A stretch of DNA of 64,000 bases, taken from Candidatus Latescibacterota bacterium (GTDB lineage: Bacteria; Latescibacterota; UBA2968; UBA8231). Location of the stretch: NCBI GenBank assembly GCA_965223905.1, contig CBDCXV010000011.1:128001-192000 (forward strand), in the 5' to 3' direction. Below, piece by piece: positions 57,050-64,000 of the stretch. The position numbers were made by a program, and so were the translations under genes. The notes beneath the pieces are model-generated. The model saw only the letters and a program-made list of their open reading frames with translations, did not search any database and was not told where the DNA came from. How positions within the stretch are numbered: position 1 is the stretch's first letter; each line of letters opens with the position of its first letter.

Positions 57050-58084
57050 ATGAAGGGTGAACCGGCCGGGATCCCGGCCTTCGAGCAGTCGTTTTCGGAA
57101 GTCGGTCCGCATCGGCCCCGGCGCCTGCGCGGAAACCGCCTCATCCGCAGCATGGTTCGCGAGACCAGCGTGCGGGTCGAAGACCTGGTTATGCCCTTCT
57201 TCGTCTGTCCCGGGGAGGGGGTGCAGCTCGAGATCCGGTCGATGCCGGGGAACCACCAGCTCTCGGTCGACCTCTTGGTCGAGCAATCCCGCGAGGTCGC
57301 CGGCCTGGGGATTCCAGCTGTCCTCCTGTTCGGGATTCCCGGGGAAAAGGATGCAGTGGGCACTTCCGGCTACGACCCGAACGGTATCGTCCCAGCGGCG
57401 ATTCGTGCAATCAAAGACGCCGGCCTGGACCTGCTCGTCATCGCCGACGTCTGCCTTTGCGAGTACACCGATCATGGGCACTGCGGCGTTCTCGGGGAGC
57501 CAGCGATCGCCGCCGGCCTCGAAGTCGACAACGATCGCACGGTGGAGTTGCTGGCGAAGGAGGCTCTCGTTTACGCCGAGGCCGGGGCTGACATGATTGC
57601 TCCCTCCGACATGATGGATGGGCGCATCGGCAGAATCAGGGCGGTTCTCGACGGCAACGGTTTTACGCACCTGCCGATCATGTCGTACGCGGCCAAGTAC
57701 GCCTCCGCATTCTACGGCCCGTTTCGGGAAGCTGCCGGGTCGGCGCCGCAGAGGGGCGACAGACGCGGCTACCAGATGGATCCCCCCAACTGCCGGGAGG
57801 CTATGCGGGAAATCGAGCTCGACCTGGCGGAGGGTGCCGACATCATCATGGTCAAGCCGGCGCTCGCCTATCTCGATGTGCTGCGCGAAGCCCGGCGGCG
57901 TTTCGATGTCCCCCTGGCTGCCTACAGCGTCAGCGGAGAATTCGCCATGGTCAAAGCCGCAGCGGAGAGGGGCTGGATCGACGAGGTACGCATCAGAGAC
58001 GAAATTCTGCTGGGTATCAAGCGGGCGGGGGCAGACCTGATCATCACCTATTTTGCCAGAGATGTCGCCGCCGGCCTCGCCTGA
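57050..58084 (+). CDS. hemB: Porphobilinogen synthase (Zn-type)
   Basis: RPRRLR, DVCLCEYTDHGHCG, APSDMMDGR, YGPFREA and MVKPA. Confidence 0.97.
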   Translation: MKGEPAGIPAFEQSFSEVGPHRPRRLRGNRLIRSMVRETSVRVEDLVMPFFVCPGEGVQLEIRSMPGNHQLSVDLLVEQSREVAGLGIPAVLLFGIPGEKDAVGTSGYDPNGIVPAAIRAIKDAGLDLLVIADVCLCEYTDHGHCGVLGEPAIAAGLEVDNDRTVELLAKEALVYAEAGADMIAPSDMMDGRIGRIRAVLDGNGFTHLPIMSYAAKYASAFYGPFREAAGSAPQRGDRRGYQMDPPNCREAMREIELDLAEGADIIMVKPALAYLDVLREARRRFDVPLAAYSVSGEFAMVKAAAERGWIDEVRIRDEILLGIKRAGADLIITYFARDVAAGLA

Positions 58085-58132
58085 TCAAGGAGTTTTCGTC
58101 GGCTCTTCGGGCGGTTGGACAGCGGTAGAGGG

Positions 58133-59080
58133 ATGATGAAGAACTACCTGAAAATCATGGCGGGATCGAGCAATCCGAAGCTCGCCAGGGAAATCTGCGA
58201 ATATCTCGACTGCCCCCCCGGACGTCTGTCGGTCGATCGCGCCTCGAACGACACCATCAAGGTGCAGATCAACGAGAACGTCCGGGAAGACGACGTCTTT
58301 GTCGTTCAAACCTCCTGTCCGCCGGTGAATGACAACTTCATCGAGCTCCTGCTCATCATCGACGCCCTGAAATACGCCTCGGCGCGCCGCATAACGGCGG
58401 TGTTGCCGTACTACCCATACGTGCGTTCTGACAAGAAGGACGAGCCGCGCATCTCGATCAGCGCGCGCCTCGTCGCCGATCTGCTTGAAACCGCAGGCGC
58501 CGACCGCATACTGACCATGACCCTGCACTCGCCCCAGATCGCCGCCTTTTCCCGTATCCCCGTCGATCAGCTGTGGGCGACCAACCTGTTGTGCAATCAT
58601 CTGTTGCGGACCCGGGATCTCAGCAACGCGGTGGTGGTTTCTCCCGATGTCGGCAGCGCCCACGAGGCGAACTATTACGCCCGCCGCCTCGAGCTTCCTC
58701 TTGCAATCATGGACAAAAGGCGCAAAGGAGACGACGAGGTCGCCGAGGTGCAGACCGTCATAGGCGACATCGAGGGCCGGGACGCACTCCTGTTCGATGA
58801 CGAGGTCCTGACCGGCAGCTCGATGATGGAAGCCATCCGCCTGCTCAAGGAGCGCGGGGCTCGACGCATCCTGGCCGGATGTACCCACGGCGTTTTTTCC
58901 GGTGATGCCATTGCACGCATCGAAGCCTCCCCGGTGGAGCTGTTTCTCAAGACCAACACGGTGCCGATGCCCGCCGAGTCAGAAACGGGAAAGATCGAAG
59001 TGATCTCGGTTGCCCGCCTTTTCGGCGATGCTATCAAGGCCATCCACCACGGCGAGTCGGTCAGCCGCCTGCTCGACTGA
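58133..59080 (+). CDS. prs: Ribose-phosphate pyrophosphokinase, paralogue 1
   Basis: PYYPYVRSDKK, TLHSPQI, SPDVG, DKRR, DDEVLTGSS and THGVF. Confidence 0.92.
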   Translation: MMKNYLKIMAGSSNPKLAREICEYLDCPPGRLSVDRASNDTIKVQINENVREDDVFVVQTSCPPVNDNFIELLLIIDALKYASARRITAVLPYYPYVRSDKKDEPRISISARLVADLLETAGADRILTMTLHSPQIAAFSRIPVDQLWATNLLCNHLLRTRDLSNAVVVSPDVGSAHEANYYARRLELPLAIMDKRRKGDDEVAEVQTVIGDIEGRDALLFDDEVLTGSSMMEAIRLLKERGARRILAGCTHGVFSGDAIARIEASPVELFLKTNTVPMPAESETGKIEVISVARLFGDAIKAIHHGESVSRLLD

Positions 59081-59110
59081 CTGTGCCGCACCCAAACCTC
59101 GAGGACCGAC

Positions 59111-59272
59111 ATGCCGAGCAGATTCAGCATCATCTCCGAGTTGTGGGCCTTCATGCAGGTTCGCAAGAAGTGGTGGCTGGGACCGATTTTCGCAACCCTT
59201 GTCCTGCTCGGAATGCTGATCGTTCTCACCGAGGGGTCTGCCCTCGCCCCCTTCATCTACACGCTGTTCTGA
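59111..59272 (+). CDS. DUF5989-family small membrane protein (53 aa)
   Basis: Below the ORF-track cutoff; GAGGA RBS. MPSRFSIISELWAFMQVRKKWWLGPIFATLVLLGMLIVLTEGSALAPFIYTLF carries the RKKWWL.P and APFIYTLF signature. Confidence 0.88.
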   Translation: MPSRFSIISELWAFMQVRKKWWLGPIFATLVLLGMLIVLTEGSALAPFIYTLF

Positions 59273-59431
59273 TATCCTTCAGGTCGCGAAACCGGTTTCG
59301 TGCAACCACCTGGTCCGTCTCTTTGACTCCCGGAACTCGGGCAACTTATCTTAATATGCTACAGTGAGTTCCGTCGTTTTTCGATGTCCTCTCCGCGGCA
59401 ATTTCAGACCCCTGATCGACGGCCTAATCGT

Positions 59432-59977
59432 ATGGACAGTCACAGTACTATCCAGGTCGATCGGCTGGCTGAATTGATTCGGGACATCCCCGACTTTCCG
59501 AGGCCGGGGATATTGTACCGGGACATTTCCACCTTGCTCAAGGACCCTTGCGGACTGAGGGCGGCAGTGGTGGCCATGGCCGCCCCCTTCGAGCCATCCG
59601 CCGTCGACATGGTCGTCGGGGTGGAAGCGCGCGGGTTCATCCTCGGGGCTCCCATCGCCGTTTCCCTCGATTGCGGGTTCGTTCCGGTGCGGAAGTCGGG
59701 AAAGCTGCCTGCGGCCGTCGTCGGTGAAGAGTACGAACTGGAATACGGGACCGCCGCAGTCGAAATTCACCGCGATGCCCTGAAACCGGGGGATCGGGTA
59801 CTGGTCGTCGACGACGTTCTCGCCACGGGCGGCACAATGGCTGCTTCCTGCCGCCTGCTCGAACAGCTTGAAGCAAGTATTGTAGCTGCCTGCTTTCTCG
59901 TTGAGTTGAATGCTCTCCGGGGGCGCGACCGGCTCGCCCAGTACCGCGTCGAGTCGGTTATACAGTATCGCGACTGA
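59432..59977 (+). CDS. apt: Adenine phosphoribosyltransferase
   Basis: IRDIPDFPRPGILYRDI, EARGF, RKSGKLP, YELEYG and VDDVLATGGT. Confidence 0.97.
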   Translation: MDSHSTIQVDRLAELIRDIPDFPRPGILYRDISTLLKDPCGLRAAVVAMAAPFEPSAVDMVVGVEARGFILGAPIAVSLDCGFVPVRKSGKLPAAVVGEEYELEYGTAAVEIHRDALKPGDRVLVVDDVLATGGTMAASCRLLEQLEASIVAACFLVELNALRGRDRLAQYRVESVIQYRD

Positions 59978-59992
59978 AGACAAAGGGGCCTG

Positions 59993-60655
59993 ATGGCAAG
60001 AAGTGAAAGACCTACCAGAGCAGAGCTCGAGGAAGACCGCTTCGTCGAGTGGATCATGCAGGCCGCGGACTTCCTGAAAGAGCGGATGCAGTTCGTCATT
60101 GCCGCGGCAGCAGCGGTAGCGGTGATCGTCGTGCTGATAAGCTATCTTCGCAGCGCTGAGGAAGAGGCGCGCCTGCAGGCGTCGACATCGTTCGGCCAAG
60201 TGTTGATGGCGGACGCCAACGGGGACGTTGCGCAGGCGTTGGAAATCGCCGAAAACCTGATCAGGGAACACCGTGGGACCCCAGCGGCGGCCCAGGGGGT
60301 GGTCTACCTGGCCAACCGCTACTTCCGCCAGGGTCGGCTCGACGAAGCCCAGCGCCTGTACGAGACCTACCTGGAAGATTACGGAGATGTCGACGTTCTC
60401 GTGTTCGCTGCCTGGAGCGGGGTAGCGGCCTGCATCGAATCGCAGGGCCAGTTCGCCCAGGCCGCCGAGAAATACGTGCAGTATGCAGACCGGTACGATG
60501 GGCAGCAGGCGTCCCTGGCCCTGATGAGCGCTTCTCGCTGTTACGCTTTGGCAGGTGAAACCGCAGCGCAGAAGAAGGCGCTGCGGCGAATCGCGCGGGC
60601 TTTTCCGACGTCTCCCGTCGTCGCAAAAGCCCGCGAGCAGCTGAGGAGGCTGTGA
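59993..60655 (+). CDS. Membrane-anchored TPR protein (YfgM-like)
   Basis: ELEEDRFV N-terminus, one TM segment and TPR-like helices ending FPTS..A. Confidence 0.75.
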   Translation: MARSERPTRAELEEDRFVEWIMQAADFLKERMQFVIAAAAAVAVIVVLISYLRSAEEEARLQASTSFGQVLMADANGDVAQALEIAENLIREHRGTPAAAQGVVYLANRYFRQGRLDEAQRLYETYLEDYGDVDVLVFAAWSGVAACIESQGQFAQAAEKYVQYADRYDGQQASLALMSASRCYALAGETAAQKKALRRIARAFPTSPVVAKAREQLRRL

Positions 60656-60680
60656 ACTTCTCGCTGTCAGCGGAGGAGAA

Positions 60681-61619
60681 ATGACCAACAAGCTCAAGGT
60701 CTTCGCCGGCAACAGCAATCCCGACCTCGCGGCGCGAATCTGCGGTTCGCTGGGGGTGTCACCGGGGGGCCTCGAGATCATTCGCTTCAGCAACGAAAAT
60801 CTCAAGGTCAAGATCTGCGAGAACGTCCGCGGCTGCGACGTCTTCTTCATTCAGACCTCCTGCGCCCCGGTTAGCGAGCACCTTATGGAATTGCTCATCG
60901 CCCTCGACGCGTTGAAGTTCGCGTCCGCCGGACGGATCACCGCAGTATTGCCTTACTACCCGTACTCGCTCGCAGACAGCAAGGACGAACCTCGCATATC
61001 GGTCGCCGGCCGGCTGATGGCCGACCTTCTCACCGAGGCCGGTGCGGACCGCATTCTAACCATGACCCTTCACAGCCCGCAGATCATGGGGTTCTGCAGA
61101 ATCCCGATCGATCAGCTCAGCGGGGTTTCTACCATATGCGAGAACTTTCGCAGCCGGGACATAGAGAATGCTGTCGCGGTGGCACCGGATATCAGTCGCG
61201 CCAAGGTCACGGAGGGGTACGCTCGTCATCTGGGAATGCCGCTCGTGGTCCTCGACAACCGGCGAACTCCAGAGGGGAAGCTCCGGGTCATGGGCGCCAT
61301 CGGGGACGTCGAGAGGAAGAATGCCATTCTCTTCGACGACGAGATCATTACAGGAGACTCCGTTATCGCCGGCTCCGAGGCCTTGAAGGAAAGAGGCGCT
61401 GAGACGATCTACGCCGGATGCGTTCACGGCACCCTCGCTGAATCCGCACTCCTCAGGATCGACAAGTCCATTCTGGCCGGGTTGACGGTGACCGACACCA
61501 TCCCCCAGGCTCCGGAGGAGGGGCATCCGAAACTGACCGTCTGTTCCGTAGCCGAACACTTCGCCGACGCGATCAAGGCGATTCACGAAGAGACCTCCAT
61601 CAGTGCTCTTTTCAACTAG
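60681..61619 (+). CDS. prs: Ribose-phosphate pyrophosphokinase paralogue 2, probably non-catalytic on its own
   Basis: Full-length PRS fold with FSNEN, but YSLADSK replaces YxRxDKK and DNRR replaces DKRR. Confidence 0.85.
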   Translation: MTNKLKVFAGNSNPDLAARICGSLGVSPGGLEIIRFSNENLKVKICENVRGCDVFFIQTSCAPVSEHLMELLIALDALKFASAGRITAVLPYYPYSLADSKDEPRISVAGRLMADLLTEAGADRILTMTLHSPQIMGFCRIPIDQLSGVSTICENFRSRDIENAVAVAPDISRAKVTEGYARHLGMPLVVLDNRRTPEGKLRVMGAIGDVERKNAILFDDEIITGDSVIAGSEALKERGAETIYAGCVHGTLAESALLRIDKSILAGLTVTDTIPQAPEEGHPKLTVCSVAEHFADAIKAIHEETSISALFN

Positions 61620-61697
61620 CGGCGCAACAATAGCTTGGGGGTCAAAAATCCGTCTCCGGGAAGGGGTAGGCAGCGGGACCGCCGCCGAGATCGGCTG

Positions 61698-62420
61698 GTG
61701 AAATACGCCATCCTCGCAGACATACACGCCAACCTCGAAGCCCTCGAGGCGGTCTTGATCGCGGCCGAAAACGAGGGAGCGGATCACTTCATCGCCGTCG
61801 GCGATATCGTCGGGTACGGCGCGGACCCTGTCGCCTGCATCAACCGACTTCGCGAGAACGAGTTTGTGTGCGTGCTCGGAGATCACGACCAGGCCCTTGT
61901 CGACGGCAGACAAGTTCGTAGCTTCAACGCATTGGCCCGCAACACGATATTGCGATCACGCGATCTCGTTTCCGAAGTCGAACTCGACTACATCCGCCAT
62001 TTCGGATTCCGGCACGTCGAATTCGATGCCGTTTTCGCCCACGCCAACCCGATCAGGCCGGAGAACTGGCTGCACATGATTCTGCACCGGGACATCGCCT
62101 GGTGCCTCGAGAGGCTGGACTGGAGGGTCGCCTTCGTCGGCCATACCCACTACCCGGGGATCTATTGCGGTACCGGCAGCCAGGTGACGTCGTTGACTTC
62201 ATCGGAAGTCTCGGTGGGACCGCATCGCTACCTCATCAACCCCGGGAGCGTCGGACAGCCTCGAGACGGCGACCGCAGGGCATCCTACGCCCTTTGGGAC
62301 GTGGACGCGGAGTACGTCCAGTTGCTACGGGTCGAGTACCCCGTCGAGAGGACCCAGGAGAAACTGCGCCAGGCGGACTGGCCCGAATACCTTGCCGAGC
62401 GCCTGGGAAGAGGGGAATAG
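61698..62420 (+). CDS. Metallophosphoesterase family protein
   Basis: ADIHANLEAL, GDIVGYG, GDHD, GHTH and NPGSVGQPRDG. Confidence 0.9.
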   Translation: MKYAILADIHANLEALEAVLIAAENEGADHFIAVGDIVGYGADPVACINRLRENEFVCVLGDHDQALVDGRQVRSFNALARNTILRSRDLVSEVELDYIRHFGFRHVEFDAVFAHANPIRPENWLHMILHRDIAWCLERLDWRVAFVGHTHYPGIYCGTGSQVTSLTSSEVSVGPHRYLINPGSVGQPRDGDRRASYALWDVDAEYVQLLRVEYPVERTQEKLRQADWPEYLAERLGRGE

Positions 62421-62426
62421 TCGAGG

Positions 62427-63347
62427 ATGAAGGGGCTTGTGTTGCGGGTATCCGGATTGCAATCGACCGTCGAGGCGGATGGCAGGAGCTGGCAGTGCGA
62501 GATTCGAGGGCGGTTGAAAGCCGGGCGGCGAGACGTCCAGTCTCCTGTCGCTACCGGGGACTGGGTTGAATTCGAGCCTACGACCGAATCGACCGGCGTG
62601 ATCGAGAACCGGCATCCCAGGCATTCCAAGCTCTCCCGGGCGATGTCGGGACGCCGCCCATGCGAACAGATTCTCGCCGCGAATGTCGATTGCTTCGCTG
62701 TGGTTGTCGCCGCCCGCCAACCCGCGGTCAGCCCGGGGTTCATTGACCGCGCCCTGGTGATGGCCCAGGAGGGAAAGGTCGAGCCCCTGATCTGCCTCAA
62801 CAAAATCGACCTCACAGAGGGCCCGGCTGTGCATGAGGTCGAGCGCATCTATGGGAACCTGGGATATCGCGTACTTCTCACCTCAGCCAGGACAGGGGAG
62901 GGAATCGACGAATTGACACAATTGCTGGCCGGCCGCGTCTCCGCCCTCGTCGGCCAGTCTGGGGTCGGCAAATCGAAGATTCTCAACTGCATTGATCCGA
63001 GCCTGAACCTTCCTACCGCCGGGTTGATGAAGAGACACGACCGCGGGCGCCATACCACTACTTCCATACATCTTCACCGGCTGCCTCGCGGCGGTTACGT
63101 CGCCGACACCCCTGGGGTAAAGTCACTGCAACCTTGGGGGGTGAACCGCCGCCAGCTCACCAAGTATTTTGTCGAAATGGTGCCGTTGACCGGACAATGC
63201 CGGTTCCGTGACTGCACCCACATCCACGAGCCTGGATGTGCGATTCGGGACGCGGTGAAATCCGGGATGATAACGGAACTGCGCTACGAAGGCTTCAAGC
63301 GCATAAAGGAAAGCCTTCCGGAGCCGGCTGCCGAATGTCGGAACTGA
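62427..63347 (+). CDS. rsgA: Ribosome small subunit-dependent GTPase A
   Basis: NKIDL, GQSGVGKS, GRHTTT, DTPG and CRFRDCTHIHEPGC. Confidence 0.96.
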   Translation: MKGLVLRVSGLQSTVEADGRSWQCEIRGRLKAGRRDVQSPVATGDWVEFEPTTESTGVIENRHPRHSKLSRAMSGRRPCEQILAANVDCFAVVVAARQPAVSPGFIDRALVMAQEGKVEPLICLNKIDLTEGPAVHEVERIYGNLGYRVLLTSARTGEGIDELTQLLAGRVSALVGQSGVGKSKILNCIDPSLNLPTAGLMKRHDRGRHTTTSIHLHRLPRGGYVADTPGVKSLQPWGVNRRQLTKYFVEMVPLTGQCRFRDCTHIHEPGCAIRDAVKSGMITELRYEGFKRIKESLPEPAAECRN

Positions 63348-64000
63348 CGATAGACGCCCTGCTGAAACGGTACGGGCGCCCGCTGGGCCTCCGTCTGCTG
63401 GCCGGCGACAAGGGGATGGGACGAACCATCAACAGTGCGGACGCCCATCGTCCGGGCCTGACCCTAACCGGTTTCGTCGAGATCTTCACGTTCGCCCCGG
63501 TTCAGATCCTCGGCAATCTCGAAATCGACTACCTGCGCAGCCTGCCGCCGGACCGGAGGCTGCAGGCGCTGGAGATCATCTACCAGTTCGAACTGCCCTG
63601 TATCGTGGTGACCGGCCGCGGGCGACTTCTTCCCGAACTGAGGATACTCGCCAACAAGAACAACATCCCCCTGCTCAGAACGGAATTCGACACGACCAAG
63701 TTCATCCACCTCCTGCATTTCTACCTCGACCCGGTTTTCTCTCCCCAGGTCACCATGCACGGCACCCTCGTCGACGTCCACGGAGTCGGTCTTCTCGTTG
63801 TCGGTCGCAGTTCCATTGGCAAGAGCGAGATTGGCCTTGATCTGGTGGAGAGAGGGCACCGCCTGGTCGCCGATGACACCGTGAAAATCACAAGGCATGC
63901 CCAGGGTATTCTCGTAGGACGCAGCCCGGAGCTGCTGCAGGATCACATGGAGATTCGGGGTATCGGCGTCGTCGACGTCAAGAGGCTGTTCGGAATCGGG
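63335..64000 (+). CDS. hprK: HPr(Ser) kinase/phosphorylase (partial, runs off window end)
   Basis: Not in the ORF track. Manual translation from ATG 63335: HRPGLTLTGF, HGTLVDVHGVG, GRSSIGKSE, RGHRLVADD and MEIRGIG. Confidence 0.95.
   Translation, partial: MSELTIDALLKRYGRPLGLRLLAGDKGMGRTINSADAHRPGLTLTGFVEIFTFAPVQILGNLEIDYLRSLPPDRRLQALEIIYQFELPCIVVTGRGRLLPELRILANKNNIPLLRTEFDTTKFIHLLHFYLDPVFSPQVTMHGTLVDVHGVGLLVVGRSSIGKSEIGLDLVERGHRLVADDTVKITRHAQGILVGRSPELLQDHMEIRGIGVVDVKRLFGIG

Follow-up and report, generated by a model that had tools for sequence, protein, structure and literature searches.

Between positions 58,133 and 61,619 of a 64,000-nucleotide stretch of DNA from a Candidatus Latescibacterota bacterium (assembly GCA_965223905.1, contig CBDCXV010000011.1, positions 128,001 to 192,000 of the forward strand; hereafter the window) lie two paralogous genes, P1 and P2, for class I phosphoribosyl pyrophosphate (PRPP) synthase (PRS), which have lost complementary parts of the active site. 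P1 keeps the catalytic loops and lacks the aromatic residue of the FLAG hairpin, and P2 keeps the hairpin and lacks catalytic residues. From this pattern we propose that the two proteins form a heteromer in which each P1:P2 dimer has a single composite active site, a reading to which we give a probability of roughly 0.65. An earlier note on this DNA had suggested subfunctionalisation, with P2 donating its loop to the site of P1; residue conservation, selection, gene linkage, gene counts and the literature on a trans-acting Phe now lend support to that suggestion as a prediction from sequence. We infer from these lines that P1 and P2 associate physically, that they do so in the dimer arrangement set out below and that activity depends on both.

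Complementary losses of active-site residues

Unless a protein or its columns are named, residues are numbered here as in human or E. coli PRS. P1 retains the catalytic residues of the RF, PP, CF and R5P loops and has a FLAG hairpin without Phe35. It carries the Lys194 and Arg196 that mark the catalytic loop of a class I PRPP synthase (its Lys195 and Arg197), and Arg98, Lys195, Arg196 and Arg197 of P1 are invariant across 18 orthologues. Since Ala37 occupies the position of the adenine-stacking Phe35, the P1 of the window is in effect a natural F35A variant; it lacks the defining residue of the hairpin, which the downstream gene has in all 38 of the loci compared below. Among 48 P1 orthologues this position holds A, E, G, S, T or Q, and F in none of them. 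In variability, column 37 of P1 ranks 11th among 309 (2.33 bits, the mean being 0.56), and P2 does not vary at this column.

P2 keeps FSNEN in the hairpin and has lost Arg96, Lys/Arg99, Gly173, Lys194 and Gly227; with Leu97, Ser100 and Asn193 at the positions of Arg96, Lys/Arg99 and Lys194, it amounts to a natural R96L, K99S, K194N variant. The earlier note had recorded the losses of the Arg and the Lys, and both stand, but its list was too short: the losses extend to Lys/Arg99, Gly173, Gly227 and, in most orthologues, Arg196. P2 consequently does not hold the combination of Lys194, Arg196, Arg96 and Lys/Arg99 by which class I PRPP synthases are recognised. By its disrupted catalytic residues, its conserved FLAG region and the interfaces that the complex model described below predicts to be preserved, it would be classed as a PRPSAP-like pseudoenzyme. 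Its hairpin appears frozen: Phe36, Ser37, Asn38 and Asn40 are invariant across 18 orthologues, and FSN-N is found in 53/53 orthologues, which is stricter than in other PRS. The columns at Arg196, Gly227 and Lys194, by comparison, rank 13th, 24th and 50th in variability in P2, and those of the catalytic loop as a whole 7th to 50th, all of them being invariant in P1. In one large genus the catalytic loop of P2 reads D-Q-[GAD]-A-G and is four aligned positions shorter. As a separate observation on P2, the open frame upstream of its start is long in the genus of L087-L110 (370-507 residues from stop to stop against a match of about 305 residues), which may reflect high G+C.

We next compared the two genes across relatives in 38 of 46 related loci (L069-L114), those with two full-length prs open reading frames (ORFs), assigning genes to an upstream and a downstream group by their position only and not by any trait (Table 1). 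Among 56 further PRS, drawn partly from the same class and partly from other phyla, Phe35, Lys194 and Arg196 are each present in 56/56, as is Arg or Lys at position 96.

Table 1. Active-site residues in the upstream (P1) and downstream (P2) genes of 38 loci
Residue	Upstream gene	Downstream gene
Phe35	0/38 (A 20, E 9, G 5, T 2, S 2)	38/38
Arg96	38/38	0/38 (Leu 37, Met 1)
Lys/Arg99	38/38	0/38 (Ser)
Gly173	38/38	0/38 (Ser)
Lys194	38/38	6/38 (otherwise Q, R, N or I)
Arg196	38/38	11/38
Gly227	38/38	0/38

An unbiased scan of the 69 columns conserved at 85% or more in 38 other PRS gave the same division (columns in P1 numbering). Columns 9, 37, 38, 70, 138 and 213 are lost only in P1, with 37 and 38 being the FLAG Phe-Ser, and columns 98, 109, 111, 169, 174, 179 and 229 are lost only in P2 and include Arg96, Gly173 and Gly227. 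Both FLAG residues thus fall on the P1 side, and the RF-loop Arg, the Gly beside the metal-binding Asp171 and the R5P-loop Gly on the P2 side. The complementary substitutions are conserved in at least 12 genera, which answers the concern, voiced with the original suggestion, that they might not be conserved. A search of representative sequences with P2 gave no wider view of the P2 type, since none of its full-length matches was more than 54% identical and those at 56-60% were fragments only. Its 153 aligned rows include the two queries and the third prs of the window's own genome (see below); in 116 of them the four key positions read F, R, K and R, and the exceptions are mostly fragments or Tyr/His/Lys variants.

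Two observations concern other PRS types. A PRS-like gene from a metagenome-assembled genome (MAG) titled Pseudomonadales (L140:2177-3112) is 28% identical to P2, has Leu at the Arg96 position (YSLQDK), lies on a very long branch and probably represents a different PRS class. In another family of the same class, two PRS types are found about 2 kb apart (L050, G031:C7:33751-39459; L051, G034:C25:148787-153736), one of them canonical (FSGGE, YARQDRK, DKRR) and the other with Lys at Arg96 and a DKER loop (FSEGN, YGKGDKK); both keep Phe35.

Selection and evolutionary history

Within the window's genus, the ratio of nonsynonymous to synonymous substitution rates (dN/dS) lies between 0.067 and 0.118 for P1 and between 0.059 and 0.128 for P2; another genus gave medians of 0.070 for P1 (208 pairs) and 0.078 for P2 (248 pairs). 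Ratios this low indicate that P2 is not decaying and that it is under purifying selection as strong as that on P1, contrary to the neutral evolution that the earlier note had named as fatal to its proposal.

We then derived a maximum-likelihood tree from the 85 sequences left after de-replication at 92% identity, with branch support from the Shimodaira-Hasegawa-like approximate likelihood ratio test (SH-aLRT). P1 (SH-aLRT 98) and P2 (100) each form a single clade, and a larger clade (91) is made up of P1, P2 and the single-copy canonical gene of a sister family (G026, G028; FSNEN, YVRSDKK, DKRR). The stem branch of P2 is threefold longer than that of P1 (0.97 vs 0.33). In the free tree the sister-family gene falls beside P1 (SH-aLRT 93), a placement under which the duplication would predate the split of the two families; the approximately unbiased (AU) test does not reject an exclusive clade of P1 and P2 (p 0.237, log-likelihood difference 5.8), and a duplication before and one after the split are both compatible with the tree tests. 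Within about 1.5 kb downstream of the sister family's prs there is neither an apt nor a TPR gene of the kind found with P1 and P2.

Linkage in a cassette and gene counts

The related loci come from MAGs titled Candidatus Latescibacterota and, in some cases, Gemmatimonadetes or Gemmatimonadota. In 40 of the 46 loci, which were found with P2, the gene order is P1-apt-TPR-P2 on one strand, the TPR gene lying between apt and P2 in every one of these complete cassettes; the remaining six loci are cut by contig ends or fragmented. On the question of co-occurrence, which the earlier note had raised, P1 and P2 were always found together in one cassette.

Pribosyltran_N was searched for in 54 genomes of the family with a completeness of 90% or more, from 13 genera, 26 of the 54 coming from one genus. 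Exactly two matches were obtained in 39 of these genomes, many of them one-contig assemblies, and the placements inspected (not all 39) put both genes about 2.4-2.8 kb apart. Eleven genomes have three matches, with a strong third gene in seven (G000, G001, G002, G012, G016, G072 and G073, the last with its cassette split over two contig ends) and a weak third match, to a PRS-like ORF of about 410 residues, in four (G007, G021, G048, G075). Three genomes have one match: G004 and G020, one-contig assemblies from one genus, lack the pair and have one canonical gene each, and in G045 the single match lies 2.4 kb from the contig start. One genome (G017, 230 contigs) has no match. Judging by gene content, some P1/P2 assembly must make PRPP in the 39 genomes with two prs genes. 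The weakly matching ORFs, of about 410-420 residues, score 26-31 bits with Pribosyltran_N and have PRS-like motifs (L148:425-1687, minus strand; L149:1038-2267, plus strand; G021:C54; G048:C129); they may represent a diverged class of PRS-like proteins, and in the four genomes concerned they could be another source of PRPP.

The window's own genome (G000) has a third prs (P0005; contig C1:70071-71006, minus strand; locus L002:925-1872) in which all motifs are canonical (FSNDN, YARSDKK, DKRR). It is 46% identical to P2, has a long branch close to another type of PRS and, among the genomes searched, occurs only in the window's genus (G000, G001, G002); its presence in the one-contig relative G002 argues against contamination. 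Absence of a third canonical prs, which the earlier note had put forward as a check, is thus borne out in 39 of the 54 family genomes but not in the genome from which the window comes, and in the window's genus the pair is not the sole possible source of PRPP. As for consumers of PRPP, a full-length PurF-like ORF is present in 5/5 one-contig genomes without a third prs, none of them scoring above the TIGR01134 cut-off. The pyrE model passes its cut-off in one of these five genomes; elsewhere it gives only weak phosphoribosyltransferase-domain matches, all of which fall within the prs cassette (on apt, and in one genome on P1). With apt in the cassette and the PurF-like ORF (below the model cut-off), the PRPP users that accompany the pair number at least two.

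A candidate heteromer and the alternatives

A cryo-electron microscopy study of the E. coli enzyme (PMC9232217) places F35 (by π-π stacking) and D37 of chain C against the nucleotide bound in the site of chain B, where R99 and H131 of chain B hold the nucleotide phosphates and its D170, D220, D221, T225 and T228 hold ribose 5-phosphate. In the model presented in PMC5395218, Arg104, which by motif position is taken as the equivalent of Arg96, contacts the adenine ring. In human PRS1, according to PMC4363470, F35A leaves the enzyme without normal activity, and for K194A and R196A none could be detected, Lys194 and Arg196 being essential in both the human and the B. subtilis enzymes.

The ATP site of class I enzymes is built across the dimer, with the FLAG hairpin of one subunit (Phe35, Asp/Asn37) closing over an adenine bound by the RF, PP, CF and R5P loops of the other. 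In the mechanism that we propose, a gene duplication in an ancestor of this Latescibacterota-like family would have given rise to P1 and P2, of which P1 would have retained all the catalytic loops and lost the FLAG Phe, and P2 would have retained a frozen hairpin and lost Arg96, Lys/Arg99, Gly173 and Gly227 and, in most lineages, Lys194 and Arg196. Because these losses are complementary and the hairpin acts in trans, each P1:P2 dimer would hold one intact site, with its loops from P1 and its hairpin from P2, and a second site, with loops from P2 and hairpin from P1, that is dead on both counts. P1 would accordingly serve as the catalytic subunit and P2 as a non-catalytic subunit that donates its hairpin, and assemblies of P1 only or P2 only would be expected to be poor or inactive.

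A structural model of the P1:P2 complex scored 0.84, the best of three controls reaching 0.00; the mark used is passed by 58/80 solved complexes and 2/110 mismatched pairs, counts that hold only roughly here, the model having been made with our own alignments (A1 and A2, of 18 rows each). Between runs, the agreement of contacts is 97% or more, and the partner's pLDDT is 89 or higher. The predicted interface brings residues 36-46 of P2 (the hairpin) against residues 96-110 of P1 (the RF loop), together with the mirror image of this contact, and includes residues 69-71 of P1 and 108 of P2. On P2 it lies on the N-terminal domain (residues 36-120), where the surface is well conserved. We take it to be the active-site-forming dimer of solved PRS. 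Since PRS homo-oligomers have been solved, the high score may reflect that likeness only.

Several points weigh against the heteromer. The complex model does not separate hetero- from homo-oligomers, and that the heteromer forms and is active is itself something we infer. The hairpin of P1 conserves Asn39 (47/48) and Asn41 (42/48), and P2 retains His130, Asp171 (48/53), Asp220, Asp221 and Thr225, conservation that a wholly useless second site does not predict; together with the fixed Leu at the Arg96 position of P2, these kept residues suggest that the "dead" site may have a structural or ligand-binding role. The constant presence of the TPR gene in the cassette finds no explanation in the proposal, and nothing ties its product by function to PRPP metabolism. 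The window's genus and four other genomes carry a strong third prs, and in the window's genus the pair is still under selection. Furthermore, the genome sets behind the counts overlap and many of the genomes are close kin, so that, with nearly half of the 54 from one genus, the counts of loci and genomes are not independent events. Lastly, class II PRS are active with remodelled FLAG residues, as a 2026 preprint states (10.64898/2026.06.01.728777), and a PRS without the canonical hairpin is therefore not impossible.

In a rival account P1 is a self-sufficient homomer that binds its nucleotide without the aromatic platform, perhaps with relaxed donor specificity, and P2 is a PRPSAP-like regulator that joins and tunes the complex and is dispensable for catalysis. 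The retention of every catalytic-loop residue and of Asn39 and Asn41 in P1 agrees with this account, as do the active class II enzymes of that preprint (10.64898/2026.06.01.728777), and eukaryotic PRPSAPs offer a precedent for non-catalytic partners with conserved FLAG regions (PMC12238573). We nevertheless consider it unlikely, though a serious contender, given the impaired activity of human F35A (PMC4363470) and the place of the Phe position among the most variable columns of P1 (rank 11/309), which looks like absent constraint rather than a new binding solution. The P2 hairpin is also invariant beyond what is seen in other PRS (FSN-N in 53/53), and the pair is never apart where contigs allow this to be seen.

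It is quite improbable, in our view, that P2 stands outside PRPP synthesis altogether, as a ligand-binding regulator or a homo-oligomer acting on another substrate, with its linkage to P1 and apt reflecting a shared pathway only. The kept His130, Asp220, Asp221 and Thr225 and the invariant Leu at Arg96 do suggest a pocket that is altered rather than erased, and the long P2 stem (0.97 vs 0.33 for P1) is in keeping with such a shift; yet this would leave the loss of Phe35 from P1 in every lineage unexplained, no canonical PRS was found in 39/54 genomes that could supply PRPP, and the N-terminal surface that forms the modelled interface is well conserved in P2. That one of the genes is a pseudogene or an assembly chimera is least credible, to the point of being negligible: its sole basis is a low-depth contig of run X3 joining 58287 to 60886, set against frames that are intact and full length both here and in dozens of genomes, including one-contig ones, dN/dS of about 0.07, and independent runs of two other studies that reproduce the stretch.

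Relation to known systems and significance

The canonical bacterial homohexamers (E. coli 4s2u and 7xmu, B. subtilis 1dkr, Thermus 7pn0) share with P1 and P2 their fold, length and pair of domains, the phmmer E-values of the two proteins against these solved chains being about 1e-92 to 1e-66. They also share the trans-acting logic of the FLAG hairpin, but each is encoded by one gene, with identical subunits and all sites complete. By way of mechanistic analogy only, one degenerate nucleotide-binding site is also found in heterodimeric ATP-binding cassette exporters, which are unrelated in fold and chemistry, and mixed dimers of two differently inactivated mutants can restore one shared active site; in both, two subunits make up the active site, and complementary defects leave each dimer with one working and one dead site. 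Among eukaryotes, the yeast paralogues Prs1-Prs5 form heteromers, which count with the mammalian complex as the nearest known system.

The closest parallel is with the mammalian PRPS1/PRPS2-PRPSAP1/PRPSAP2 complex, which, as set out in PMC12238573, likewise consists of class I PRS paralogues that arose by duplication; like P2, the PRPSAPs have lost catalytic residues (Lys194, Arg196 and others) and conserve the FLAG region, and the authors suggest that partners of this type may remain able to pair with an active isozyme in the minimal dimer. However, eukaryotic PRS pseudoenzymes carry insertions in the CF or RF loops (PMC12238573), whereas P2 has no insertion relative to P1 or 7pn0. P2 therefore has neither the non-homologous CF/RF insertion nor the opisthokont PRPSAP2/Prs1 orthology of a PRPSAP proper, having arisen within a bacterial family. 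The P1/P2 pair differs from the eukaryotic complex in being bacterial, in its independent origin, in the reciprocal nature of its losses and in mostly having no self-sufficient isozyme alongside; dependence would be mutual, since the catalytic partner P1 has itself lost Phe35.

In PMC12238573, bacteria and archaea are said typically to express a single PRPS, and multi-paralogue PRS complexes with pseudoenzyme subunits are called a eukaryotic hallmark. The 2026 preprint, a pan-domain survey by the same authors that queried 33,248 non-redundant prokaryotic sequences, made its pseudoenzyme screen in the eukaryotic dataset only and reports that catalytic residues are retained across the major prokaryotic classes (10.64898/2026.06.01.728777). 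A full-text literature search of a limited collection found no report of a bacterial PRS heteromer or pseudoenzyme. In bacteria, PRPP synthase is treated as a single-gene homo-oligomer. With confidence only a little better than even, going by residue patterns and gene content, we propose that P1 and P2 constitute the first prokaryotic hetero-oligomeric PRPP synthase, obligate in both directions through reciprocal degeneration.

Were this so, the family would for the most part rely on a pseudoenzyme in its sole route to PRPP, and hence to nucleotides. The pair would be a clean natural example of the passage from a homomer to an obligate heteromer by loss alone, with complexity fixed by complementary loss at a central metabolic step, and it would offer a small, easily expressed model for the action of a PRS pseudoenzyme via the FLAG hairpin. 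It would also be a warning for annotation and metabolic reconstruction, as both proteins bear the name "ribose-phosphate diphosphokinase" and neither would be likely to work alone.

The locus in the window

Over 314 residues, P1 and P2 share 52% identity. Their matches to Pribosyltran_N and Pribosyl_synth run the full length of these models, and the two proteins score above the NCBIfam cut-offs of TIGR01251 (113 bits) and NF002320 (297 bits); both have the full-length, two-domain architecture of class I PRPP synthases. P1 scores 158.4 bits with PF13793 and 352.6 bits with TIGR01251 and also matches PF14572 and PF00156, and the corresponding scores of P2 are 136.7 and 306.9 bits. For both, the nearest solved structure is the PRS chain of 7pn0 / 5t3o (E 4e-92 for P1 and 5e-82 for P2), and the family models name both ribose-phosphate diphosphokinase. 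The six motifs read in the earlier note were all recovered (ASNDT, YVRSDKK and DKRR in P1; FSNEN, YSLADSK and DNRR in P2), as were its two full-length genes flanking apt (Table 2); the TPR gene between apt and P2 was absent from its description.

Table 2. Genes and key codons of the cassette, in window coordinates
Feature	Positions	Strand	Details
P1, class I PRPP synthase paralogue	58133..59080	+	ATG at 58133, stop ends 59080, 315 aa
P1 codon 37, Ala, at the adenine-stacking Phe35 position (human/E. coli PRS)	58241..58243	+	alignment to 7pn0
P1 codon 98, Arg, equivalent to Arg96	58424..58426	+	
P1 codon 195, Lys, equivalent to catalytic-loop Lys194	58715..58717	+	
apt, adenine phosphoribosyltransferase (PRPP consumer)	59384..59977	+	NCBIfam NF002636, NF002634 and TIGR01090 above cut-offs
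TPR protein with hydrophobic N-terminal segment	59993..60655	+	Pfam TPR_16, TPR_14, TPR_19, TPR_21
P2, class I PRPP synthase paralogue	60681..61619	+	ORF, 312 aa
P2 codon 36, Phe, equivalent to Phe35	60786..60788	+	
P2 codon 97, Leu, at the Arg96 position	60969..60971	+	
P2 codon 193, Asn, at the catalytic Lys194 position	61257..61259	+	

The intergenic gaps measure about 300 bases between P1 and apt, 15 between apt and the TPR gene and 25 between the TPR gene and P2. A promoter and terminator scan of 57900-61800 returned four promoter-like sites, of which one is on the plus strand (59323-59352, just upstream of apt), and no terminator-like site on that strand; the scan does not decide whether P1 shares one transcript with apt, TPR and P2.

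All 30 bins of 58000-61700 are covered, almost letter for letter, by contigs of two other studies; one of these contigs, 3345 bases long, differs in three letters, none of them within a key codon. Among the differences listed, just one touches a key codon, namely a minority T>C in the third position of the Arg98 codon of P1 (58426), and the active-site substitutions of P1 and P2 recur in dozens of related genomes. This agreement of reads and orthologues, which the earlier note had wished to see confirmed, indicates that the key residues are not assembly errors. The contig of run X3 mentioned above skips 2598 bases at a depth of 2, with 27 letters on the shorter side of the joint, and is probably an assembly chimera between the paralogues. 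Contigs from RNA libraries (two runs of one study, labelled sponge metagenome) cover parts of P1, apt, the TPR gene and P2, and one of them spans the junction of the TPR gene and P2 (60366-60762); DNA carry-over is possible in such libraries, and these contigs do not prove transcription or a shared transcript.

Upstream of P1, the ORF at 57050-58084 is, by eye, presumably a porphobilinogen synthase-like gene, and the ORFs downstream of P2 at 61635-62420, 62427-63347 and 63236-64000 have, again by eye, the look of what we take to be a metallophosphoesterase, an RsgA-type GTPase and an HPr kinase. The G+C content of the window is 0.54-0.60 over positions 1-26000 and 0.62-0.67 over 26001-56000, which may point to a compositional boundary, such as that of an island or a different class of genes.

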